Of a stretch of DNA of 64,000 nt, positions 24,654-49,492 are shown piece after piece. Position 1 is the first letter of the stretch. The number at the start of each line of letters is the position of its first letter. A model generated the notes under the pieces. That model made no database searches. It saw only the letters and a list, made by a program, of their open reading frames with translations, and was not told where the DNA came from. This DNA comes from a candidate division WOR-3 bacterium (lineage in GTDB: Bacteria > Hydrothermota > Tepidihabitantia > Tepidihabitantales > Tepidihabitantaceae): positions 912-64,911 of the forward strand of contig VGIR01000002.1 in NCBI GenBank assembly GCA_016867815.1. Direction: 5' to 3'. Position numbers and translations under genes: made by a program.

Positions 24654-24770
24654 TGGTCACAGGCATATCGTTCTTTGATAATTCGGATGTAACCCAAAGC
24701 GTGCTCGGGTTTGTGCCATAACTAGTTGATTCAAGACATCAGAGCAGACAGACCCCTAAGATTTTTTGCT

Positions 24771-26308
<1,538 letters not shown>

Positions 26309-38242: not shown

Positions 38243-38989
38243 TCAGCTAATCAGCCTCGGCAGCAACTCTCCTGCCTTCTCCTTGAAATGTACGTCCACA
38301 ATCGAACCCAACCCGGTATCGCGCGGATTCACGTCAACGAGCATGGCCGCGGCCTCGTGCGCGAGCAGCGCCCACTGCAGGATATACCCGAACGACGCCT
38401 CCGTGCCGATGACGAAGCAAAGGTCAATCCGGCCCTCAAGGAAATAGTGGTGGATTTGCTCGACCGGCTGCCGCGGCAGGTTCTCGCCGAACCAGACAAT
38501 GTCCGGCCGCAAGACATTGCCGCACATACACAATGGCGGGATTTCCGAAAGCGGTGTTTCGCGGTTCTCGAGAACGGTGCCGTCGCGCTCGCACCGCGTG
38601 TGCCAGAGCGAGCCGTGGATGCGCACCACTTCCTTCGAACCGGCCTGCTCGTGCAGGTCATCAACGTTCTGGGTCACGACGAACACCCGCCTGCCCGGCT
38701 TCTCCAGCGCAGCCAGTGCCAGGTGTCCCGGGTTCGGCCTCGCCTGCGCCATGTTGCCCCGGCGCTCATCATACCACTTCCAGACCTTCACCGGGTCGCG
38801 CTTGAAAGCCTCGCGGGTCGCGTAGTCGAGCGGGTTGAACTCCCTCCATAGTCCCCGGTCGTCGCGGAACGTCGGGACGCCGGACTCGGCCGAAATGCCC
38901 GCGCCGGAGATGACCATGATGTTTTTCGCCCTGGCCACCCGCTCGCGCACCAGCGCGATGTCCTCAGTCGTGGTCGTTTCGGTCTTCAT
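38243..38989 (-). CDS. cobB: NAD-dependent protein deacylase (sirtuin, CobB/Sir2 family)
   Basis: 248 aa with ISGAGISAESGVPTFRD..., catalytic His, and zinc-ribbon cysteines. Confidence 0.9.
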   Translation of the reverse strand: MKTETTTTEDIALVRERVARAKNIMVISGAGISAESGVPTFRDDRGLWREFNPLDYATREAFKRDPVKVWKWYDERRGNMAQARPNPGHLALAALEKPGRRVFVVTQNVDDLHEQAGSKEVVRIHGSLWHTRCERDGTVLENRETPLSEIPPLCMCGNVLRPDIVWFGENLPRQPVEQIHHYFLEGRIDLCFVIGTEASFGYILQWALLAHEAAAMLVDVNPRDTGLGSIVDVHFKEKAGELLPRLIS

Positions 38990-39280
38990 TGCCGCGTGAT
39001 TCTACCGGCTCGCTCAGCCCAGTCAAACGACAGAAGCGAAACGGAAGCCGGAAGCCGCGGGCCTCTCAGAAGAAACCCCTCCATCAACGTCGAGGCGACG
39101 GCAGGACCGTCGTCTAGAATGCCTATCGAGGCACTGGAATCCTTGAATCCTCGATTCCTGGAATCCTTCCGCAGTGAACGCTGAACGTTGGACGATGGAC
39201 GAGCTGACGTTGTACGATGTCGCGTTGGGCGGAGAAAGACTCTTGCCGTCCCCGGAATTACTGAACTAAATGATGTTTGG

Positions 39281-40171
39281 CTAGAGCCCAGGCGGTTTGT
39301 CGCCGAACTGCCATCCGTCCGCGAGGAGCCGTTTCACTGCCGGAAAGTGGCTCTTTTCCGATATCGACTTGCTGGTGATTGGCGGCATGTTGTCTTTGGC
39401 AATTGTGCGGGCGACCAGCAGGCCAACAACAGGACCTGCTTGGATGGCGATGACTCCTAGCCATGCATTGACGAAGAACGCTGCAACACCAAACACGATG
39501 CCGATGGCCAAGCCGATGTATCCCGCCTTGTTGACGGAGTCATAGCCATGAACGTGCTCCTTCTGGCAGGCGGGACACCGTGGTACTGCGACGGTGGACT
39601 TCCTCCATTGGTAGTGCGTCCCGTATTGCGTTCCCCTATAGATGGGCGTCTTGCTCGTTACCTTATGCATTGACACTGGGACGGTCGCAGCAGCGTCAGG
39701 CGGGTGCTGCCCGCAGAACCAGCAGCTTCTGGTCTCGATCTCGGCTCGCGCGTCATCGAGCCACTCTTGATCTTGCGGGTTGTCACGCATCGCGACAGCC
39801 TTCTCCAAAAACGGAATCGCCTCTTCTGGTTTTCCCAACTGAACGAGCGTACTCCCCAGCCAATGAAAGTCTATGGCTGTGGCTCGCAGCTCTACGGCGG
39901 CGCGGAGATACAGAAGCGAGTGTTCTTTCTGTCCGTCCCGGGACAAGCTCTGACCGATCTTGGCAAGCCGCGCCGCGACTTCTGCGACACCCTCGTGCGC
40001 AAGAACAGTCTCGGCGCGGTTGAGTGCAGTGATGGTCTCCGGATGTGACTTGTTCTCGACCAGTAGGCGCATGTGCGCCCGCCTAATGTCGGCTCGCGTT
40101 GGCCGCAAGGGCAGTCCCAAAGCCTCCTCGTAGCGTTCGTCGGCGAGCAACAGAGCAACAGCGGCTGACAC
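39281..40171 (-). CDS. Membrane-anchored J-domain-like protein (HPE variant) with TPR repeats and a CxxC...CxxC zinc ribbon; putative co-chaperone of the adjacent Hsp70
   Basis: 296 aa. The N-terminus ...LGLPLRPTRADIRRAHMRLLVENKSHPE aligns with J-domain helix II/III, but HPD is replaced by HPE. TPR-like helices follow (LYLRAAVELR...LGKPEEAIPFLEKAV). It contains CWFC...CPAC and two C-terminal TM helices (IGLAIGIVFGVAAFFVNAWLGVIAI). It lies 7 nt downstream of the Hsp70 gene. Confidence 0.6.
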   Translation of the reverse strand: MSAAVALLLADERYEEALGLPLRPTRADIRRAHMRLLVENKSHPETITALNRAETVLAHEGVAEVAARLAKIGQSLSRDGQKEHSLLYLRAAVELRATAIDFHWLGSTLVQLGKPEEAIPFLEKAVAMRDNPQDQEWLDDARAEIETRSCWFCGQHPPDAAATVPVSMHKVTSKTPIYRGTQYGTHYQWRKSTVAVPRCPACQKEHVHGYDSVNKAGYIGLAIGIVFGVAAFFVNAWLGVIAIQAGPVVGLLVARTIAKDNMPPITSKSISEKSHFPAVKRLLADGWQFGDKPPGL

Positions 40172-40177
40172 GGGAGC

Positions 40178-42217
40178 CTACTTTTTCTCGTCCACCTTGC
40201 TAGGGATAGCGCTGAGCTCGTCAAGAAGCTCACGGAATCGTTTCGGCTCGATGTCCCCTGTGTCCAGTAGGACAGAAAGCAGCTCTCCCGTGCGGTGCAT
40301 GAGGTCAGGGCAGTCGTCATTCGGAGACCCCCCGGCACCCCCAGGCTGCGCTCTTTCGGCAAGTGCCTCCAGTTCCGCGGCCTTGCTCTTCACTCGATCG
40401 TCCCGCGACGACACCATGTCCAGCGCTCGGCGTGCCGTTCGGAGAAGACGCTCCCGGTGGGACTCAGTCCAACTCCCGCTCCGCCCCTTTGCAGCTTCCA
40501 GCCATCCCGCAACATCCTCCTTGGTCAGCGGATCTTCGTGTTCCTCTTGCGCCACGATTTCGCTACCATCGAGCTTGTCCAATCCAACGTAGGTCACCGT
40601 CTTCCCGGACTGGCGATGCTGCAGCGCAAGCGACAGTTTGCGGTTCTCGTCCAGCGACACCTTCACGTCCACCAAGGGCAATTCGCTGTTCGGCCTAAGG
40701 CCAACGGGGACATGACCGAGGAGTTGGTATGACCAGACATCGCTTCCTACCGTCGACTTCGCTGCGTCCGGCACCTTGGAGACAAGACGGAATTTCACTT
40801 GCAGGAGTGTCGGGTCGCCGTATACGACTGAAACGGTGCCATCAATGGGGTATGTTGAGTTCGGGGGGATCGCAGTGTCGAAACGCGGGGCATGGCCCTT
40901 GACGAAGAACGTGGTCCCATACCCGTAGGGCGACCGCTTGACGACTGGCTCGATCACACGACCAGCCTTCAGGGCTGCTCCCTGAGCTACACACTCCATT
41001 GGGTTCACAGGGAAGCCACGCTGTTCAATCTGGTCAATCTGGGTTAGCACCTCTGCTCGGACACCGAGTGTGGCAAGCTCTTCTCGCACAGCCTTTCTGA
41101 TACACGGCATGTGCACAGGCCCGCCGACAAATAGCACATGGTCCAGCTCCTTCGCGGCGACATTGGCCTGACGCAGAGCAACGCCTATCGGTGTGCGGCT
41201 CTTCGCAAGAAACGACTGGTCATCCCCGCTGGCAGACTCAGAGAGAAGCCGCTCCAGGTCTGCACGGGTCAGCTCTAGCGACTGACCATCGGGTGACTCC
41301 ACGACCGTGGATTGTCTCTTGGAGAGTCTGATTTTCGCTCGCTCGACCTCGCTACGCAGCATGGCTTTCATCTTCGGGTCGGCATCAACGTCGTTGAGGC
41401 CGTGCTCATCAACCAAGTGGCTATACAGAACGTCGTCCATGTCGAGCCCGCCGAGCTTCTCGTTACCTGACGTCGCCGCCTCTCCGGGCGCGAGCTTGCC
41501 GCCGACCTCGGTAATGTGCAGGACCGTCACGTCCAGGGTACCCGCACCCATGTCGTAGGCAAGAATAACGGATTCCTTCTGAAGCTGAAGTCCGTACTTG
41601 ACCGCCGCTGCAGTCGGCTCAGCAATCGTGCCGAAATCGGTGAACCCGGCGTCGGCCGCCGCTCTCTGTATGGGTTGAACCCGAGTGTCCTTGAAGTACG
41701 CAGGTACGCTGATGACAGCCCGGCTGATCAGACCTCCGCCGGTGAACAGGTTGAGCGCCCGGTTCTCGGCGTCCTCCTTCACCTCGCGGAGTATGAACGT
41801 CAGAACCTCGGTTGGCGTAAGCGTACGGCCAGCCACGTTGATGAGTATGCCTCGATCAGGCCCTTCGATGATGTCGTACTGGAATCGCCTCACGTCACCG
41901 CTCTTGCATGCGGCGGCGTATGACAGGCCGACGAGCCGTTTGACGCCCCAGATGACGTGTTTGGGATTGATGGCCCAATCTTCCTTCGCCTTCTGGCCAA
42001 CGTACTTGACGTTGCCGTCAGCGCCAAAAGAGACGAACGACGGGAACTGCTTGCCGTAGAGAGTCTTCCCGTAACGACTTTCTATCATAGCTGGTGTGCT
42101 ATCGCGGGCGAATGCCGCAGCCGAGTTGAAAGTCCCGAGGTCGATGCCTATTGTGCGTTCTTCCACATGTTCTCCTTCAAGCGGCGGGAGCCACCTTCTC
42201 CTGGCCTGCACTGACAA
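40178..42217 (-). CDS. Atypical Hsp70-family ATPase (DnaK/HscC-like nucleotide-binding domain with a divergent C-terminal region)
   Basis: 679 aa. Hsp70 nucleotide-binding-domain motifs are present: IGIDLGTFNSAAA (phosphate 1), VISVPAYF, DMGAGTLDV (phosphate 2) and LFVGGPVHMP (adenosine). The C-terminal ~250 aa lack the canonical substrate-binding-domain signature. The start is uncertain: the annotated ATG overlaps the upstream gene by 41 nt, and an in-frame GTG lies about 50 nt downstream. Confidence 0.85.
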   Translation of the reverse strand: MSVQARRRWLPPLEGEHVEERTIGIDLGTFNSAAAFARDSTPAMIESRYGKTLYGKQFPSFVSFGADGNVKYVGQKAKEDWAINPKHVIWGVKRLVGLSYAAACKSGDVRRFQYDIIEGPDRGILINVAGRTLTPTEVLTFILREVKEDAENRALNLFTGGGLISRAVISVPAYFKDTRVQPIQRAAADAGFTDFGTIAEPTAAAVKYGLQLQKESVILAYDMGAGTLDVTVLHITEVGGKLAPGEAATSGNEKLGGLDMDDVLYSHLVDEHGLNDVDADPKMKAMLRSEVERAKIRLSKRQSTVVESPDGQSLELTRADLERLLSESASGDDQSFLAKSRTPIGVALRQANVAAKELDHVLFVGGPVHMPCIRKAVREELATLGVRAEVLTQIDQIEQRGFPVNPMECVAQGAALKAGRVIEPVVKRSPYGYGTTFFVKGHAPRFDTAIPPNSTYPIDGTVSVVYGDPTLLQVKFRLVSKVPDAAKSTVGSDVWSYQLLGHVPVGLRPNSELPLVDVKVSLDENRKLSLALQHRQSGKTVTYVGLDKLDGSEIVAQEEHEDPLTKEDVAGWLEAAKGRSGSWTESHRERLLRTARRALDMVSSRDDRVKSKAAELEALAERAQPGGAGGSPNDDCPDLMHRTGELLSVLLDTGDIEPKRFRELLDELSAIPSKVDEKK

Positions 42218-43490
42218 TTACGTCCGCTGGGCGTAGCACTTCAAGTTCTTCAGGCGAGCCACCTCTGATGCAGTAGCCTTTGCGGGCTACAGACAGCACC
42301 GTGCCCGTCGGTGATGAATCTGGGCGCTTCTCCAAGATGTTGTGTTGCAGATGGACGAACGGCCGACCCATCTCCACGCGGATTTCCTCGATTCCTACGT
42401 CTTCGATCGTCCGTCGTGCGACGCGCAGTTCCCTCGCAAGCTCGCTGTTCATGCCACCGCGCGTCTCGGTCAGTTCGAGGTTGTCTAAGAGCGTGAACAG
42501 GCCGTTCGCAACTGCGTGGTAGCGCGAGCGGGCCTCCCTTGTGACCTCGCCGCCTTCCACTCCGAAGCGCCAGATGCTCGCCCCTAGGTCTCGCATCTTC
42601 TCACGCGCAGCGTCCATCGTTTCCGCAACAGCCGACGCCGTGTCAGCCAGCTCGCCGGCGGTCTGCCCTTCTCGGGCGACGTCAGCAGCGGATCGAGTTT
42701 CAGCGCGCCCCTCTCGTGGTCCAGCAACGAACCGCACAACGAAAGCTGTGACCAAGCATGCCAGAAGCAACCCCCCAACGATGGGAATCCAGAGGGGGAT
42801 ACCCCGGGACGAGCGAGACGGTTGGTTGGATGTGGTCACTAGAGTGCGAGCGAGCATCCGAAGTCTATCGCGGAGTGTGGCTAGATCAGGGGCACTGGAC
42901 ATGTGACCGCCTGCGGCTCGCGCCAAGTCTGCAAGCAGTGACGTGTTAGCGCCCTCTGCGCCGGCGAGCCCGGTTACTAGCACCCGGGATGCTGTCCGGC
43001 GCAGACGCGGGGCCGTCTGTTCAAGGAGGACGGCCGCTGCCGAGTCTGTTGCCCTAGCTCCCCCCGGGACATCAAGCCAGCCGTCGGTGAGCAGAACGAT
43101 GACTCTGTTGGCCATCGGGCGAGCAGCGGCGAGCAGCGAGTCGGACATCATCAGCCCAGGATTCACGTCAGTATAGCCGTCTGCGAACTTGAGACCTTTG
43201 GATTTGAGACCCTTCAGTATCGCTGCGCTGACGCCATCACGGCTAGAGTCGGCCATGACGGTCCACGGTACTATCAGTCTGGCCTCTGACCCGAAGGCCA
43301 CGACTGCAAGTCGGCATTGCGCATCAAGGGAGTCAGCAAACTCCGCCACTGCCGCCGCGGTTGACGCCGGTACGGAGCCGGAGTTGTCAATCACTAGCAC
43401 AACATCGGTCAGTCTCTCGGTCGGAGCCTGCGCTGAGAGAGCGATCGCTACGGCTACCAACAGCAGTACGAACGTGCGCACGGCGGTCAT
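42177..43490 (-). CDS. Fusion protein: signal peptide + periplasmic vWA (MIDAS) domain + single TM + cytoplasmic GrpE-like nucleotide-exchange domain
   Basis: 437 aa. It has signal peptide MTAVRTFVLLLVAVAIALSAQA, vWA MIDAS motif VLVIDNSGS...LLTDG, and TM helix IPLWIPIVGGLLLACLVTAFVV. The C-terminus ...DVGIEEIRVEMGRPFVHLQHNIL...PTGTVLSVARKGYCIRGG...EVLRPADVIVSAG matches the GrpE C-terminal block (G.PFDP..H.A...PGTV..V.QKGY.L..R.LRPA.V.V). It overlaps the AAA+ gene by 4 nt (ATGA). Confidence 0.7.
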   Translation of the reverse strand: MTAVRTFVLLLVAVAIALSAQAPTERLTDVVLVIDNSGSVPASTAAAVAEFADSLDAQCRLAVVAFGSEARLIVPWTVMADSSRDGVSAAILKGLKSKGLKFADGYTDVNPGLMMSDSLLAAARPMANRVIVLLTDGWLDVPGGARATDSAAAVLLEQTAPRLRRTASRVLVTGLAGAEGANTSLLADLARAAGGHMSSAPDLATLRDRLRMLARTLVTTSNQPSRSSRGIPLWIPIVGGLLLACLVTAFVVRFVAGPREGRAETRSAADVAREGQTAGELADTASAVAETMDAAREKMRDLGASIWRFGVEGGEVTREARSRYHAVANGLFTLLDNLELTETRGGMNSELARELRVARRTIEDVGIEEIRVEMGRPFVHLQHNILEKRPDSSPTGTVLSVARKGYCIRGGSPEELEVLRPADVIVSAGQEKVAPAA

Positions 43491-45658
43491 GAGTTCTCCT
43501 TCTTCTCTGCCCCGAAGCCGATGCGCTTTGGCTTCAGCTTCTTGGTTCCTTCCTGAACTCTGGCAATAGCCGCAGTGAGGTGAGCCATTTTCACCACAAT
43601 CCCGCGCGGCGCGAACTTGTTGTCACGCAGGGCGGAGAATGCGGCCTCGCGGCATACCTCGGCCAACTCGGCCCCGGAGAAGCCTTCCGTGATGGCCACA
43701 AGCCGGTCGACACGCACGTCGTCCGCCAGCGGTTTGCGCTTCAGGTGTACGTTCAAGACGGCCTTGCGCGCTCCGGCGTCCGGCAGTGGGACTTCAACTT
43801 GGTAGTCGAATCTGCCGGGCCGAAGCAGCGCGGGGTCGAGGATGTCCGGTCGGTTGGTGGCCCCGATGACGAACACGCCGTCCGCAGACTCGGCGCCGTC
43901 TATCTCGGACAGAATCTGGTTGACCACCGTGGCGTCCGCGCGTTCGCCGTAGCTGCCGAGTCCCTCCGACCTTGCGGCGGCCACCGCGTCAATCTCATCG
44001 AAGAAGACCACGCAGGGGGCGTTCTGCCGGGCTTTGGAGAAGATGAACCGGACACGGTGTTCAGATTCTCCGTACCACTTGGAGCGGATTTCCGGGCCTT
44101 TGACGAAAATGAAGTTGGCACCGCACTCGGCTGCCGCGGCCTTGGCGAGCAGGGTCTTTCCTGTCCCCGGTGGGCCGTACAGAAGGATGCCCTTGGCGGG
44201 CTTCACATCGGCGGCCTCGAAAGCCTCACGCTTGGTCATCGCGTAGGTGATGTTCTCGACCAGGAGTCGTTTCACGTTGTCGAGCCCGCCGACTTCGTCC
44301 CAACTCACGTGCGGGATTTCAATCATGAACTCGCGCATTGCGGATGGCGAGACTGTGGCCAGCGCCTGGTTGAAGTCAGCCTGTGTCACCTGCGTGTCGG
44401 CCGGGACTTCCTTGAGTTCCTCCATACCGGCCACGGGCATCACGCGCCGGAGTGCGTCATACGCCGCCTCACGGCACAGAGAGGCCAGGTCAGCCCCAAC
44501 GTAGCCGACGGCACGCTCTGCCACCGACGCCAAGTCGACCTCAGGTGACAGGGGCATGCCACGCGTGTGTATGAGCAGAATCTCCCGGCGCCCCGAGGGG
44601 TCCGGAACTCCAATCTGGATCTCGTGTTCGAACCGCCCTCCCCGTCTGAGCGCGGGGTCGATCGCGTCGATGCGGTTCGTAGTGCCGATAACCACGACAG
44701 GCCCCTTCTTCTGCTTCAGACCGTCCATTTGAGCAAGGAAAGTCGCAACAACCCGCTGCTCAAGGTCACCGTGCGCAGACTCGCGCTTTGGGACCAGGGA
44801 GTCGAGTTCGTCGACGACTACGATGGCTGGTGCGTGGTTCTCGGCTTCGTCGAAGATACCGCGAACGTTCTCTTCCGTCTTGCCGTACATCGACGTGAAC
44901 AACTCCGGCCCGCTCACGCAGTAGAAGTTGGCCTTGATCTGGCTGGCAAGAGCCTTGGCAATCAGCGTCTTTCCGGTTCCGGGCGGACCATGGAGGATGA
45001 TGCCGCGCGGCGGCGTAATCCCCATGCGCTGGAGGACTTGTGGAAACCGCAGTGGATACTCCACGATCTCGCGAACTCTCGCGATTTCACGGCCCAGGCC
45101 GCCGATGTCGTGATAGCCCAGGGGAGTCTGCACGACCGCCTCTGGCTTCGTAGTGACCTGCGTGTCAGCGGTAATGGCGCAGACCCCCTTTGGATCGGTG
45201 CGTACCACCACGACCGGTCTCGGCTCCCCTGTGAAAGTGAAGAAGGCAGTCTCCTCGCCATCGGTGATAGGCTTGCCCATTATCCCTTCGCGTTCCTTGT
45301 CGCTGAAGTCTACCGGTACGTTCAGTTGTACTCTGCGGGCCTTGCTCGGGGACGAGAACTCAACCGACACGCGGTCCGTAGTCTCGACAGCGAGACAGCG
45401 TAGCTTGTATCTGTCAATCTGCAGGCGGGTCCGCGTGCCCGTTCTTACGTCGTCAATGATGCAGCCGCAGGCGCGGCCGTGAGCCCGGATGGTGGCGTAG
45501 CAGAGGCCGCCACTTGCGCGAGCGGATTCGAAAGCTCTGCGCGCGTCTACGTGCACGTCGGTCACGCATTCCAGCAGGCCGCGGTGCGTGCCGTCCAGGT
45601 CTATGCGACCCGACACCTCGGCAGTCAGCTTGGCCTGCGTCAACAGACTGCCCCACAA
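43487..45658 (-). CDS. CDC48/VCP/VAT-like AAA+ ATPase (N-domain + tandem D1 and D2 AAA modules)
   Basis: 723 aa with a TTG start. It has an N-terminal double-psi-barrel-like region and two complete AAA cassettes (GPPGTGKTLIAKA...DELD...; GPPGTGKTLLAKA...DEID...), each with second-region-of-homology arginines. Confidence 0.9.
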   Translation of the reverse strand: MWGSLLTQAKLTAEVSGRIDLDGTHRGLLECVTDVHVDARRAFESARASGGLCYATIRAHGRACGCIIDDVRTGTRTRLQIDRYKLRCLAVETTDRVSVEFSSPSKARRVQLNVPVDFSDKEREGIMGKPITDGEETAFFTFTGEPRPVVVVRTDPKGVCAITADTQVTTKPEAVVQTPLGYHDIGGLGREIARVREIVEYPLRFPQVLQRMGITPPRGIILHGPPGTGKTLIAKALASQIKANFYCVSGPELFTSMYGKTEENVRGIFDEAENHAPAIVVVDELDSLVPKRESAHGDLEQRVVATFLAQMDGLKQKKGPVVVIGTTNRIDAIDPALRRGGRFEHEIQIGVPDPSGRREILLIHTRGMPLSPEVDLASVAERAVGYVGADLASLCREAAYDALRRVMPVAGMEELKEVPADTQVTQADFNQALATVSPSAMREFMIEIPHVSWDEVGGLDNVKRLLVENITYAMTKREAFEAADVKPAKGILLYGPPGTGKTLLAKAAAAECGANFIFVKGPEIRSKWYGESEHRVRFIFSKARQNAPCVVFFDEIDAVAAARSEGLGSYGERADATVVNQILSEIDGAESADGVFVIGATNRPDILDPALLRPGRFDYQVEVPLPDAGARKAVLNVHLKRKPLADDVRVDRLVAITEGFSGAELAEVCREAAFSALRDNKFAPRGIVVKMAHLTAAIARVQEGTKKLKPKRIGFGAEKKENS

Positions 45659-45855
45659 TCGTCATTGTGATGGATGATGACTCGGTCTAGCATGTGGAGG
45701 TCATAGCGGAAGGCTAGTTCAAGTCAAGCAGCGCGTCGGCGCCGTGGCGGTGGTGAAGAGTTACCGGACGACCCAGCGGAGGACGCGTCGGAGCGACGCG
45801 AGCTTCCAGTTTCCAGTCTGCAGGTTGCAGTGCAAAGGACCAATCGAAGAGATGC

Positions 45856-45893
45856 CGCGCAGGTCAAAGGTCAAAAGGCAAAGGTCAAAGGTC
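45856..45893. repeat. Tandem heptamer repeat (AAGGTCA-like) x5
   Basis: The sequence reads aggtcaaaggtcaaaaggcaaaggtcaaaggtcaag. Confidence 0.6.
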
Positions 45894-46335
45894 AAGATTG
45901 CCGGATGTCCAGGCCGGGTCGGGTCAAGTTCCGGCGCCGGAAATGGCGAGAAGAGAATCAGCCGGAAGGGGGTCCTGACCGAGTAGCGCGCGAAGGGGAA
46001 GAACCTTGAGGGGCAAGCGAAAATCTGCCCCTCGTCTTTCACGAGGCACGCCCAATCGCAGGCAGCAGTGCCCGCGTCCGTCTTCTCGGCCCTGAACTCG
46101 CCCCGCATCGCCCAGCGACCCACTGCGTCAGTTGCAGCCGGGTTTGCGGCTCGCCATTCAGCAGTAGTCACGCTCTCGGGCAGACTCTCACCTCCCTCTT
46201 CGCTGGCCGCCTTAGCTACGACCTAGCTCAGGGCTTGACCCCGAGCCTTGCTTGCGACCCGCAACACCCGTCTGCCCGCACTTCAACCCACGCCCTGACT
46301 CGCGGCCCCGCTTAGGACTCGACCCAGGATTCCGC

Positions 46336-46455
46336 ATCTCAATCGGCACTTCACTCGGCATTTCACTCAGCACTTGAGTCGGCAACTCAGTTAACCACTC
46401 AATTGGCATCTCACTCAGCTACTCATTCGGTATTTCACTAGTCCAGTCAATCGAG
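46336..46455. repeat. Degenerate 12-nt tandem array (~10 units, consensus AyTTCACTCGGC) in a long low-GC non-coding spacer
   Basis: The units are atctcaatcggc, acttcactcggc, atttcactcagc, acttgagtcggc, aactcagttaac, cactcaattggc, atctcactcagc, tactcattcggt, atttcactagtc and cagtcaatcgag. Related 'attcagtc' and 'gagtcact' motifs recur up to about 46620. Confidence 0.65.
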
Positions 46456-46919
46456 TAGTAACTAAAGCATTCAATCCTCGATTCAGTCGGCAAGTCAGCC
46501 GGAGATTCAGTCCTTACTTCACTTGCCAGGTCGCTGCTCGATTCAGTCGAGAGATTACCTGTCTACTCATCTGGGAAATCAGGCGGGGAGTCACTCCCGG
46601 TGTGACTGGGGGAGTCACTGGGGGATTCCTGATGTCAGTGCTGATGCAGGCGCTGGGGCGAATAGGATAGTATATTGATTCTATGATGGTTAGGCAGTCA
46701 CACCGCCGCGCTTGACCGTCGATTCTCTGTGCAGTACTGTGTTGAGCTAGGGTCACGTCTCTGTGAAGCGTGCTGATGGGCTCTGAGTACTGCATTCCGT
46801 GGTCCTCGGTGAACAAAGCCCGGCCGGTAACGGTGAAGACCACGCAATATGGATATGACCCGAGCAGTCTTTAGGGAAGTCAACCCGCGGGGGTGAGGCC
46901 CTGCGAATGGAGGAGAACA

Positions 46920-47444
46920 ATGAGTGACCCGGTGAAGCGAGCGGAGCGGTGGAAGGCAAAGTACAAGACCCAGCGGGTGAAAGAGACGCTGGACGACATC
47001 CGTGAAGACATGGCCAAGCGCTACGAAGCCGCGATTGCCGACGTCTGCGTGATGGAGGGCAAGGTCAAAGAGGTCATCAACGCGGCCGGGGTTTCGACCT
47101 CGCTGTACGTGCCCTACCTCAACTTCGGTCGGCAGCTCTACAAACTGACGCGTCAGCAGAACATCACGGGCGAGAGCTTTGCGATGGCTGCCCAGGTGCT
47201 CCTCGACAAATGGGCGGCGCGCGGCTGCGACGCCTGCACCGGGACACGAGCGGGCAGGCACTGCTCGAAACCGTGGTCGCCTTTCCGGTGCTCCTGTTCT
47301 TCATGCTGGTCGTCATGGAGTTGTCGCTGCTGTACAATGCCAAGCAGTTGGCAAACTACGCCGCGTTCTGCGCGGCCCGCACGGCAGCGGTCAACGGCGT
47401 CAGCGCTACCGGGAAAACGCACTTCGCCGCGGCGATGGCGATGA
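46920..47444 (+). CDS. Hypothetical protein at the head of the Tad locus; the 3' part is questionable because of a frame overlap with the next gene
   Basis: The ATG at 46920 is preceded by GGAGGAG. The first ~100 aa (MSDPVKRAERWKAKYKTQRVKETLDDIREDMAKRYEAAIADV...) are protein-like. The last ~75 aa are Cys/Ser/Trp-rich, junk-like, and overlap the TadE-like gene by 234 nt. Confidence 0.3.
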   Translation: MSDPVKRAERWKAKYKTQRVKETLDDIREDMAKRYEAAIADVCVMEGKVKEVINAAGVSTSLYVPYLNFGRQLYKLTRQQNITGESFAMAAQVLLDKWAARGCDACTGTRAGRHCSKPWSPFRCSCSSCWSSWSCRCCTMPSSWQTTPRSARPARQRSTASALPGKRTSPRRWR

Positions 47445-47842
47445 GTCCGCTTTCCTCCGCGACCAACGTCAATGCCAACGAGATCCTGCTCGACTACGGC
47501 CTGACGAACCCGACCCAGACGGTCGCGGCCATCTGCAGCATCCCCGGTTTCCAGGGCGACAACGACAAGTGGCTGGCTCGTCTCGCCAACGCCTACCTGA
47601 GGACCGGTGCGCCTTCTTTTGCCGTGGCAAACTACGGGACGCGGAAGAACGTCACCGCGAACGTCACCTACGTCTATCGCTGCAGCTTCTGGCCGTTCGG
47701 CATCGTCTGGGGCCAGTCGGCAATCACCACCTACTACAACTCGCTCCCGGCCATCATCAAGCCTTTCGCCACGTTCGTCAATACGTGGCGCTGGAACATT
47801 GTGATTCACGGCCGCGCCGTGACCGACTACTGGTCATCCTAG
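47210..47842 (+). CDS. TadE-like pilus assembly / pseudopilin protein
   Basis: 210 aa reading ...HRDTSGQALLETVVAFPVLLFFMLVVMELSLLYNAKQLANYAAFCAAR, the TadE N-terminal motif with a class-III signal-like hydrophobic helix. Confidence 0.7.
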   Translation: MGGARLRRLHRDTSGQALLETVVAFPVLLFFMLVVMELSLLYNAKQLANYAAFCAARTAAVNGVSATGKTHFAAAMAMSPLSSATNVNANEILLDYGLTNPTQTVAAICSIPGFQGDNDKWLARLANAYLRTGAPSFAVANYGTRKNVTANVTYVYRCSFWPFGIVWGQSAITTYYNSLPAIIKPFATFVNTWRWNIVIHGRAVTDYWSS

Positions 47843-47869
47843 CGGCATGAGGGTACAGGGGGAAACAAC

Positions 47870-49492
47870 ATGAAGCCGTCTTTCAGCCAACGATCGCCGG
47901 TCGCTCTCGGCCGGCGATTGCTCTCTGACACCAGCGGGCAGGTGCTGCTGTTCGGCGCCGTGCTGGTAGTGGCGATTCTGGCATTCCTGTTCGTGATACC
48001 GAACGGAACCCAGATTACCACCAAGAAGATGCGCGCGCAGACCGCGGCCGATGCCGGCGCCTTCACCGGTTCGGTCTGGCTGGCCCGCGCCACCAACCTG
48101 AGCTCGAACATGAACATCGGCATCAAGAGCGTATACGAGTGGACAACGGTGCTGACCGTAGGCTCGGCCCTGGCACAGGCGCTCTATTCCGACACGCTCG
48201 ACTCTTCGGTCCATGCTTTGGGCGGGCAGATCACGCTGGCATTGTTCGGCAGCTCGAACCCGGTGACGGTGCACACCACCGAGTACCCGAGTGCGATCCG
48301 GAAGCTGGATACCGCCGCGCAGTGGCTCTACTCGCTGCAGGGCGACATCGCTACCAGCTTCCACAGCGTGGCAGCCACGCTCGGCACCCAGCAGGCCTGC
48401 AGCAACGTGGGCGTGGCGTATCCGCCGACTCAGGCGGCGGGAGGCTGGGCGATTGTCCGGACCAACGACACGATACCGCTGCTGTTACCGACCACGGCCG
48501 GCGACAGCGTGATCTACGCCGGTCTGAGCCAGCTAGCGCTTGCTCTGGATACTCTTCCGACCCTGGATCCCAACATCACGCCCGCCTACGGGCAGGTGAT
48601 AGTCAGCCCGTCCACCTGGGACGTCTGGGCCTACTATTCCGATACGAGCCTCTGGTTTGACCGCGTCGACAGTATCTACCACTGCTACAAGAAACCCGTC
48701 ATTTTTGAGTTCCAGAACAACTACAGCGGGAAGGTCGACACCGGGATCCAGTACATGGACCCGAGTGACAAGGGATACCCCGACTACAATCGCGGAGACA
48801 GCTGGCCGAAGTGGGTCTTGTACTGTTCCGAGGGTGAAGGGAATCACCACGTCTTCATCTGGCCCAACGGGGTCGGCAATCCTCCCTACAAGAACACCGA
48901 CCAATGGACCTTGATCAACAACCCTCATCCCGGCAACAACCGCTACAAGTTCGACACCGTCTGGACGCATGTACACCTGGCCAAGAGCACGGATACGTCC
49001 AGCCTGAGTGACTACGTGAGCCCCGAGGAGTCGATCTGGCTCGAGGAACACGAAGACGAAATCCGCAGCCACTACTGGAAATCCACCGGGTTCTACACCG
49101 GCGTCGAATCCACCGTCCCCTACAAGGGACCGAAGGTCCGGCCCCGCCGGGTCAATCCCGGCCGGGAGTTTCGCACCGTATGCTATGTCTGGCGGCAGGG
49201 AGCCTCAAGTGCTCCCTACGGCCTGGGCGCGCCGCTGGGCGGTACTTTCTTCCCGCGTAACGCGGTGGCGGCGTCAAGCCCGATGTTCGCGGTTGCCCGG
49301 TCAGTGCCCTACCAGACCCTCAGCAGTCCCACCCAGAACGAGCTTTTCTTTGAACCATCCTGGGACGTCAAGCTAACTCCGTTTGATTCGCTGGCGGTCG
49401 TGGAGATCACCGGCGATACGGCGTATTGCGGGCGGACTGGGTACTGCTTCGACAACCTTGAGGAGCTGCGCAAGTATGCGTTGCTGCCATAG
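47870..49492 (+). CDS. TadG-like large Flp-pilus assembly protein (Tad/PF13400-like N-terminus)
   Basis: 540 aa reading ...LSDTSGQVLLFGAVLVVAILAFLFVIP...KKMRAQTAADAGAFTGSVWLARA... Confidence 0.7.
   Translation: MKPSFSQRSPVALGRRLLSDTSGQVLLFGAVLVVAILAFLFVIPNGTQITTKKMRAQTAADAGAFTGSVWLARATNLSSNMNIGIKSVYEWTTVLTVGSALAQALYSDTLDSSVHALGGQITLALFGSSNPVTVHTTEYPSAIRKLDTAAQWLYSLQGDIATSFHSVAATLGTQQACSNVGVAYPPTQAAGGWAIVRTNDTIPLLLPTTAGDSVIYAGLSQLALALDTLPTLDPNITPAYGQVIVSPSTWDVWAYYSDTSLWFDRVDSIYHCYKKPVIFEFQNNYSGKVDTGIQYMDPSDKGYPDYNRGDSWPKWVLYCSEGEGNHHVFIWPNGVGNPPYKNTDQWTLINNPHPGNNRYKFDTVWTHVHLAKSTDTSSLSDYVSPEESIWLEEHEDEIRSHYWKSTGFYTGVESTVPYKGPKVRPRRVNPGREFRTVCYVWRQGASSAPYGLGAPLGGTFFPRNAVAASSPMFAVARSVPYQTLSSPTQNELFFEPSWDVKLTPFDSLAVVEITGDTAYCGRTGYCFDNLEELRKYALLP

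Follow-up and report, generated by a model that had tools for sequence, protein, structure and literature searches.

A conserved four-gene chaperone cassette

The stretch of DNA analyzed here (the window) comprises 64,000 nucleotides of contig VGIR01000002.1 from a candidate division WOR-3 bacterium (assembly GCA_016867815.1). We focused on the gene at positions 39281-40171, hereafter the J-like gene, whose product combines a J-like N-terminal domain with tetratricopeptide repeats (TPR), a four-Cys module and a membrane hairpin. An earlier reading of the same letters, referred to below as the original prediction, had viewed this product as a J-domain-like co-chaperone in which HPE takes the place of the invariant HPD tripeptide. 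Our analysis points to a different picture: the protein is probably a membrane-anchored adaptor of a dedicated Hsp70 system, with an N-terminus derived from a J domain that lost the HPD motif.

Four closely spaced genes read in one direction form the cassette, and the J-like gene comes last (Table 1). The first encodes a double-ring AAA+ ATPase with two Pfam AAA domains, two AAA_lid_3 domains and a CDC48_2 N-domain, and in its sequence aromatic pore loops can be recognized along with both Walker A/B pairs. The second codes for a vWA-GrpE-like protein, which matches Pfam VWA_2 (E=1.1e-11) and GrpE (E=9.4e-7, 29.1 bits against a cut-off of 25.8) and has hydrophobic segments at residues 1-25 and 229-259. 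This unusual fusion would appear to connect, across the membrane, an external ligand-binding domain with an exchange factor for Hsp70. The third gene encodes the partner Hsp70, and the list of open reading frames (ORFs) places the GTG start codon of the J-like gene 6 nucleotides past its stop codon. No other J domain or HPD motif was found in any cassette protein examined.

An exhaustive HMMER search over 1.84 billion representatives split the relatives into two groups, here called classes A and B. In class A the similarity spans the N-terminal domain and the TPR region; in class B, whose members usually have about 530 residues, it is confined to the C-terminal module of ribbon, membrane segment and tail. 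Upstream genes were identified by BLAST against the window proteins. In all 14 loci with a visible upstream gene (the window, L004, L007, L015, L016, L017, L020, L022, L023, L024, L028, L030, L032 and L033), the class A gene lies directly downstream of an Hsp70 of the same subfamily, 34-76% identical to that of the window. A GrpE-like gene precedes the Hsp70 gene in eight loci (the window, L015, L017, L020, L024, L028, L030 and L032), and its product always carries membrane segments, a vWA domain or both; multi-transmembrane or single-transmembrane N-termini stand in place of vWA in L017 and L024. The AAA+ gene comes first in 6/6 loci whose contig reaches that far, and the window ATPase is 48-54% identical to the first cassette genes of L015, L017, L030 and L032. 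The Cdc48-like ATPase, which the original prediction had considered a possible partner, therefore belongs to the cassette.

The cassette is found across several phyla. With their conserved order, these 14 loci unite proteins annotated as "TPR repeat protein" and "molecular chaperone DnaK" into one system. We found no description of the cassette in the literature, which, given incomplete full-text coverage, is absence of evidence only. In L024, from a Sedimentisphaerales metagenome-assembled genome (MAG), a 143-residue J-like/TPR protein is followed by a separate 230-residue protein with a CxxC...CxxC arrangement and a C-terminal hydrophobic segment; the two halves of the window protein are therefore functionally linked but separable.

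Domain organization of the J-like protein

The identical 296-residue protein was called on 10 metagenomic contigs. Its full-length AlphaFold2 (AF2) model, computed with a 52-row alignment, has a predicted local distance difference test (pLDDT) score of 94.3 and a predicted template modeling (pTM) score of 0.82. Scans of the protein against Pfam and NCBIfam produced matches to TPR only, namely TPR_8 at residues 103-129 (E=8.6e-8, 32.2 bits against a cut-off of 25.7). In addition, designed TPR proteins were matched in a PDB sequence search (E=7e-10), and the AF2 model contains five stacked helices in this region (62-78, 82-95, 99-111, 115-129 and 132-146), so that the proposed TPR repeats were confirmed. 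Foldseek with the full-length model likewise retrieved TPR proteins, including CHIP, Sgt2 and Sec72; such matches dominate this search and leave the ribbon/membrane module uninformed.

The protein has only four Cys residues (150, 153, 199 and 202). They form the two CxxC pairs noted in the original prediction and are all invariant in close relatives. Between the pairs, AF2 strands 164-179 and 182-196 would form a long beta-hairpin, and CWFC and RC motifs recur across the C-terminal segments of class B. The best Pfam match to a zinc ribbon reaches only E=0.55, which is below significance, and the module is a putative metal-binding one.

A membrane anchor had also been foreseen. A hydrophobic stretch of 44 residues is indeed present (residues 215-258, Kyte-Doolittle), but in the model it forms a two-helix hairpin followed by a conserved 35-residue tail, which is short and structured, not a simple tail anchor. 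The tail module was detected in more than 70 cluster representatives by the exhaustive HMMER search, and a hydrophobic hairpin also occurs at the C-terminus of other class A proteins (P0153 and P0154). The class A head and the class B membrane module are combined only in the small clade of the window protein.

Table 1. Cassette genes and parts of the J-like protein, with positions in the window
Feature	Positions	Strand	Remarks
Cdc48/VAT-like double-ring AAA+ ATPase	43487..45658	-	Cassette gene 1; NCBIfam CDC48 TIGR01243, 705 bits
vWA-GrpE-like protein	42177..43490	-	Signal peptide, vWA domain (predicted extracytoplasmic), one transmembrane helix (229-259), cytoplasmic GrpE-like domain (270-437)
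Partner Hsp70	40178..42217	-	Maximal ORF of 679 aa; called product of 662 aa, probable start GTG 42166
J-like gene, whole	39281..40171	-	296 aa: J-like domain, TPR repeats, four-Cys ribbon, two-helix membrane hairpin, conserved tail
J-like domain, aa 1-60	39992..40171	-	Extra N-terminal helix 2-10, helix I 14-18, helix II 26-39, loop 40-43, helix III 44-59
HPE tripeptide, aa 43-45	40037..40045	-	From translation; H43 is the final loop residue, P44-E45 open helix III
TPR region, aa 62-146	39734..39988	-	Five helices, about 2.5 repeats
Four-Cys zinc-ribbon-like module, C150xxC153 ... C199xxC202	39542..39733	-	Surrounds the long beta-hairpin, aa 164-196
Membrane hairpin, aa 211-261	39389..39541	-	Two hydrophobic helices, 211-234 and 236-261 in AF2
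Conserved C-terminal tail (FPAVKRLLADGWQFGDKP)	39281..39388	-	Common to the class B family; columns invariant among close relatives

The HPE tripeptide

According to the original prediction, HPE substitutes for HPD in a competent J domain, which would stimulate its cognate Hsp70 through a compensated canonical contact. HPE does sit at the helix II/III hairpin, as that view expected, and similarity to a J profile exists (see below). However, the tripeptide is not maintained in the family. HPD occurs in 0/38 class A domains and HP[DE] in only 2/38; position by position, His is present in 5/38, Pro in 15/38 and Asp or Glu in 25/38. Two orthologues, 51-60% identical to the window protein, read SPE and HQD. 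The gene call of the L004 orthologue (P0002) is 33 codons short, with the true start at L004:3318, and HQD is read there after correction.

The register differs as well. Profile alignments place H33-P34-D35 of DnaJ on K41-S42-H43, two residues ahead of HPE, and in this register (residues 41-43) the family likewise has no HPD. In the AF2 model, the loop between helices II and III (N40-H43) has 4 residues, compared to about 9 in DnaJ. Because HP[DE] is found in only 2/38 domains, the closest orthologues differ and the tripeptide is offset from the HPD register, the HPE of the window is, as judged from these alignments, one of the sporadic forms that a degenerate x-P-[D/E]-V motif takes in individual lineages, and not a conserved stand-in for HPD. 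The domain is an HPD-degenerate J-like domain.

Comparison with the Hsp70 residue equivalent to R167 had been suggested as a check. No covariation was observed across 12 paired loci: HPE occurs with Gly (the window) and with Asp (L007) at this position. For a charge swap between a basic residue at J-like position 41 and an acidic Hsp70 residue 167, the counts were 4/6 among loci with the basic residue and 2/6 among those lacking it, a difference that is not significant and comes from non-independent loci. The exchange of Asp for Glu is conservative, with an acidic residue at position 45 in 25 of the 38 domains and Pro at position 44 in 15, and the R167 equivalent of the Hsp70 is changed, all of which would suit a competent domain. 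Yet His is rarely kept, the linker contacted by His33 in DnaK is deleted in the partner, and replacement of His or Asp abolishes ATPase stimulation in every system tested (PMC8215388). We consider a functional HPE variant of this kind improbable.

The partner Hsp70

The partner Hsp70 matches Pfam HSP70 (E=2.3e-68) in the nucleotide-binding domain (NBD) only; its ATPase domain is complete and its beta substrate-binding domain is divergent. Its best NCBIfam matches are DnaK and HscA, both far under the cut-offs, and these models place it in no named subfamily. A homologue search returned more than 120 clusters that are 35-48% identical to it over about 96% of the length and are labeled only "Hsp70 family protein" or "DnaK". 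MAG labels of these homologues include Acidobacteriota (Bryobacteraceae and Acidoferrales), Planctomycetota (Sedimentisphaerales), Deltaproteobacteria, Pseudomonadota and one Saccharimonadales. At L004 (198-3311), two tandem Hsp70 genes of the subfamily are located upstream of the J-like orthologue, the second of which lacks the C-terminal helical domain.

In the complex of DnaK with a J domain, H33 contacts linker residue L391, D35 contacts R167 and Q378, and the basic helix II contacts E206, D211 and E217 (PMC8215388). We aligned 116 Hsp70s of the subfamily to an E. coli DnaK sequence that was checked at positions 164-173 and 389-394 only. In this alignment, all sequences have the ATPase residues K70, E171, T199 and D201, and 115/116 have D194. 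The positions that receive the J domain are different. At the R167 equivalent, Arg was found in 2/116 sequences, Asp or Glu in 79/116 and Gly, the residue of the window protein, in 4/116; the Q378 equivalent is Lys in 91/116. The equivalents of E206, D211 and E217 are L/Q/M, G and G, respectively. The VLLLD linker is deleted, leaving the linker region about 5 residues shorter, and the subfamily consensus has no EEVD-like acidic C-terminus.

Judged by these residues, the partner Hsp70 very probably hydrolyzes ATP yet does not respond to a canonical J domain. With R167, Q378, the linker and the acidic residues lost and the ATPase residues kept, insulation from DnaJ/DnaK is therefore plausible at the level of sequence. 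The loss of canonical contacts on the Hsp70 side also argues against compensation of HPD by HPE. One part of the original prediction is strengthened, namely that the J-like protein is paired with a divergent Hsp70 as a dedicated, orthogonal couple, given the 14/14 synteny and the lost J-contact residues.

Fold and origin of the N-terminal domain

Similarity of the N-terminal domain to J domains emerges from family profiles. Taken individually, just 2/30 class A N-termini matched Pfam DnaJ (best E=0.044), and a single-sequence PDB search with the J-like protein returned one J domain at E=1.4, far from significance. With a profile of 31 class A N-termini, the top 19 matches among PDB sequences were all J domains, the best at E=0.004. 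By hhalign, the class A N-terminus aligned to a J-domain alignment with 94% probability over 39-40 columns. The helix I-II signature YxxxLGv...A....I..A is present in the family, and helix II carries a basic stripe, with Arg or Lys at positions 31, 35 and 39 in 25/31, 16/31 and 20/31 sequences, respectively; the window protein has R31 and R35 but Glu at position 39.

Structure prediction agrees with this result. The AF2 model of residues 1-69 (pLDDT 85.7) shows an antiparallel hairpin of helices II and III packed by helix I. Essentially all of the first ~42 PDB matches of this model in Foldseek were J domains, with probability up to 0.99, template modeling (TM) scores of 0.5-0.6 and root-mean-square deviations of 1.5-3 A. 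The J-domain likeness seen in the original prediction thus stands for profile and fold, but not for the DnaJ profile search that it had proposed, which gave no Pfam match for the protein itself. We conclude that residues 1-60 have, as modeled, a J-type fold and are probably J-derived, and that by sequence they lie outside the Pfam definition of the J domain.

A different origin was also considered, in which the N-terminus is unrelated to J domains and forms a hairpin capping the TPR array, the protein being a TPR co-chaperone that binds Hsp70 through its groove, like Hop, CHIP or Sgt2. Two antiparallel helices of about 15 residues joined by a 4-residue turn have a TPR-like geometry, the full-length model matches the Hsp70-binding TPR domains of CHIP, Sgt2 and Sec72, and the missing Pfam DnaJ match fits this view. 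However, a search of PDB with the isolated domain yields J domains and not TPRs, despite the abundance of the latter, and hhalign of the class A N-terminus with the TPR region of its own family gave 40-67% over 14 columns, compared to 94% over 39 columns for J domains. The YxxxLGv...A....I..A signature also speaks against a TPR cap, as does the partner Hsp70, which has no EEVD-like acidic tail; clamp binding of EEVD by the TPR was ruled out for the same reason. This origin appears very unlikely.

Distribution of related proteins

A word-index homologue search gave 3 proteins, and a search with the family alignment was swamped by generic TPR candidates. In scans of GTDB genomes, one family alignment returned no relative and another returned a TPR-only match in a Novipirellula MAG.

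Class B proteins (P0022, P0029, P0034 and others; more than 70 cluster representatives) have a long helical middle part and end in the tail FPAIKxLxxGWxFGEKP. Their N-terminal consensus, LYRxNAFRVLGLPvDAs...REAxQRLxDPExRLvDEFFWFWP, aligned to the J profile with 95% probability over 65 columns in hhalign, also without HPD. At L008 (5680-11504), a class B gene adjoins genes for a 403-residue, NBD-only Hsp70 and an 828-residue Hsp70. With class B lacking HPD as well and one of its genes placed next to such Hsp70s, the association of an HPD-less J-like domain with an atypical Hsp70 would seem to be more general.

Interpretation

We favor the reading that the J-like protein is the membrane-anchored adaptor of a self-contained four-gene Hsp70 machine, that its J-derived N-terminus has lost HPD and that HPE is incidental, and we put its probability at about 0.62. 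In such a machine, the J-like domain would dock on its cognate Hsp70 through a rewired, non-canonical interface, without cross-talk with DnaK/DnaJ, and the TPR repeats may bind a client or a further subunit. The ribbon, hairpin and tail would keep the complex on the cytoplasmic side of the membrane, close to the membrane-bound GrpE-like exchange factor, which is predicted to expose its vWA domain on the outside. The Hsp70 cycle would probably deliver substrates near the membrane to the Cdc48-like ring, which would unfold or extract them, in analogy to DnaK-ClpB. The domain anatomy, the degenerate HPD, the strict synteny, the predicted membrane segments of the exchange factor and the J-like protein, and the lost J-contact residues of an Hsp70 with its ATPase residues intact are shown by the data above; we infer the physical pairing, the membrane topology, the direction of hand-off and the cellular role.

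Several observations weigh against this reading. Pfam DnaJ (PF00226) gave no match to the 296-residue protein at a listing threshold of E<=1, where HMMER filters discard most matches above about 0.1. The hhalign match of 94% probability extends over helices I-II and the first part of the loop only, and was obtained with a hand-entered J-domain reference alignment (A4). All Foldseek E-values for the 69-residue model exceeded 0.2. The x-P-[D/E]-V that opens helix III is conserved to a moderate degree (Pro in 15/38, Asp or Glu in 25/38) and could be a functional relic of HPD. In addition, the neighborhoods of the cassette vary, including restriction-modification genes (L015), NACHT, toxin-antitoxin and HNH genes (L024), and metabolic and Tad-pilus genes (the window).

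It is also highly doubtful that the protein is a pseudo-J subunit of the Tim16/Pam16 type, tethering or restraining the Hsp70 while a true J protein elsewhere (e.g., DnaJ) stimulates it: there is precedent for an HPD-less J-like protein at a membrane-bound Hsp70 motor (Tim14-Tim16, PDB 2guz, which is also a fold match; PMC3806816) and the family has no HPD, but no second J protein is encoded in the cassettes examined, and help from DnaJ is unlikely because the Hsp70 lost the residues that a canonical J domain needs.

The adaptor reading can be carried further, to an undescribed membrane-tethered Hsp70-Cdc48 machine that works without the HPD-R167 contact. A new coupling interface would then be formed by the J-derived domain and an Hsp70 with charge-reversed residue 167 (Asp or Glu in 68%) and a deleted linker, the vWA-fused GrpE-like protein would let an external ligand gate the chaperone, and the machine would serve membrane-protein extraction or conflict/defense. 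We offer this extended version tentatively, as a speculation that is rather unlikely in its entirety.

J-domain action is regarded as universally dependent on the HPD motif and on the contact that it makes with Hsp70 at R167 and at the interdomain linker (PMC8215388). The family described here, with more than 100 Hsp70 clusters at 90% identity, is a widespread natural case in which this contact is absent on both sides and the Hsp70 ATPase residues are kept. It raises the testable question of whether a J fold can couple to Hsp70 by another route, and what role a bacterial Hsp70-Cdc48 pair plays at the membrane.

Neighboring genes

Directly past the cassette lies a gene for a CobB-like Sir2 deacetylase (38243-38989, - strand), with a promoter-like site (38999-39026, - strand, 10/12 matches) in the 291-nucleotide gap. 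Membership of this gene in the operon was ruled out by its own promoter-like site, the gap and its absence from the other cassettes, and it is probably a separate transcription unit. On the other side, TadE-like and TadG-like genes of a Flp/Tad pilus (47210-49492, + strand) are divergent from the AAA+ gene, and the intergenic region of about 1.5 kb between them (45659-47209) contains no convincing ORF. A complete bacterial 16S rRNA gene was detected at 24767-26308 (+ strand; Rfam RF00177, 1473 bits) and no 23S rRNA within the 64-kb window; the rRNA genes appear to be unlinked.

Neighbors of other cassettes include a SIR2_2-NACHT-TPR protein, a HepT/MNT toxin-antitoxin pair and an HNH protein in L024 (1-645 and 14263-16018), and a BsuBI/PstI-type restriction enzyme, an Eco57I-type methylase and an ATPase_2 protein in L015 (11045-15474). 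Such defense-type neighbors, which are not seen in the window, are suggestive of a conflict role for some cassettes.

Comparison with known Hsp70 systems

The closest functional parallel may be sought in the HscC-DjlB/DjlC system, which the original prediction had invoked. There, too, a non-housekeeping Hsp70 is encoded beside its membrane-anchored partner with an N-terminal J-type domain and is insulated from DnaJ/CbpA/HscB (PMC8215388). The analogy holds for a dedicated, membrane-anchored partner but fails for the mechanism, since DjlB and DjlC (YbeS and YbeV), which are tail-anchored, are classed as true J-domain proteins and DjlC stimulates the HscC ATPase (PMC8215388). Moreover, the HscC locus as described has no GrpE-like factor or AAA+ ATPase, whereas in the present cassette HPD is lost, the anchor consists of two helices preceded by a four-Cys ribbon, and R167 and the linker are missing from the Hsp70. 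The pair found here does not consist of an HscC-subfamily Hsp70 and an HPD-containing J protein, and the likeness is functional and architectural only.

Tim16/Pam16 offers a second parallel, as an HPD-less J fold that acts at a membrane with an Hsp70 and a GrpE-type factor (Tim14/Pam18, mtHsp70 and Mge1), and Tim14-Tim16 was among the Foldseek matches. A J fold without HPD associated with an Hsp70 system is also what we observed here, given the modeled fold and the 14/14 adjacency. However, Tim16 forms a heterodimer with an HPD-bearing J protein, and the cassettes encode no such partner; TPR, a ribbon and a Cdc48-like ATPase are all missing from the mitochondrial motor, whose mtHsp70 retains the canonical J interface.

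The overall composition resembles DnaK-DnaJ-GrpE/ClpB, the bi-chaperone disaggregase of bacteria: in both, an Hsp70 is teamed with an exchange factor, with a J-type partner and with a two-ring AAA+ unfoldase, all of which are encoded in one operon here. Unlike in the DnaK/ClpB system, the AAA+ component is of the Cdc48/VAT type with CDC48_2 and not ClpB with its M-domain, and both the exchange factor and the J-like protein, which has no HPD, are membrane-bound. The combination of a J-type domain and TPR is shared with the co-chaperones DNAJC3/p58IPK and DNAJC7. In DNAJC3 and DNAJC7 the domain order is reversed compared to the present protein, whose J-like domain is N-terminal and lacks HPD. 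The TPR fold is also similar to that of Hop, CHIP and Sgt2, but the partner Hsp70 does not possess the EEVD tail.

Accessory Hsp70 paralogues associated with GrpE, DnaJ-/TPR-fused, vWA or Cdc48-like proteins have been reported for GAP1-N2 GTPase systems (PMC7159879) and for CoCoNuT, in the form of CnuD (PMC11090510). The ATPase motifs of CnuD are degenerate (PMC11090510), whereas the partner Hsp70 keeps its ATPase residues. No GTPase, McrBC, HEPN or effector domains were detected in cassette proteins, either by Pfam on the window or in the precomputed Pfam assignments of related loci, and both CoCoNuT (PMC11090510) and the GAP1-N2 GTPase systems (PMC7159879) were ruled out for lack of McrBC or a GTPase. 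PADLOC gave no match for the J-like, Hsp70 and vWA-GrpE-like proteins, and for the AAA+ ATPase returned only the generic IetA and TRIP13 models.

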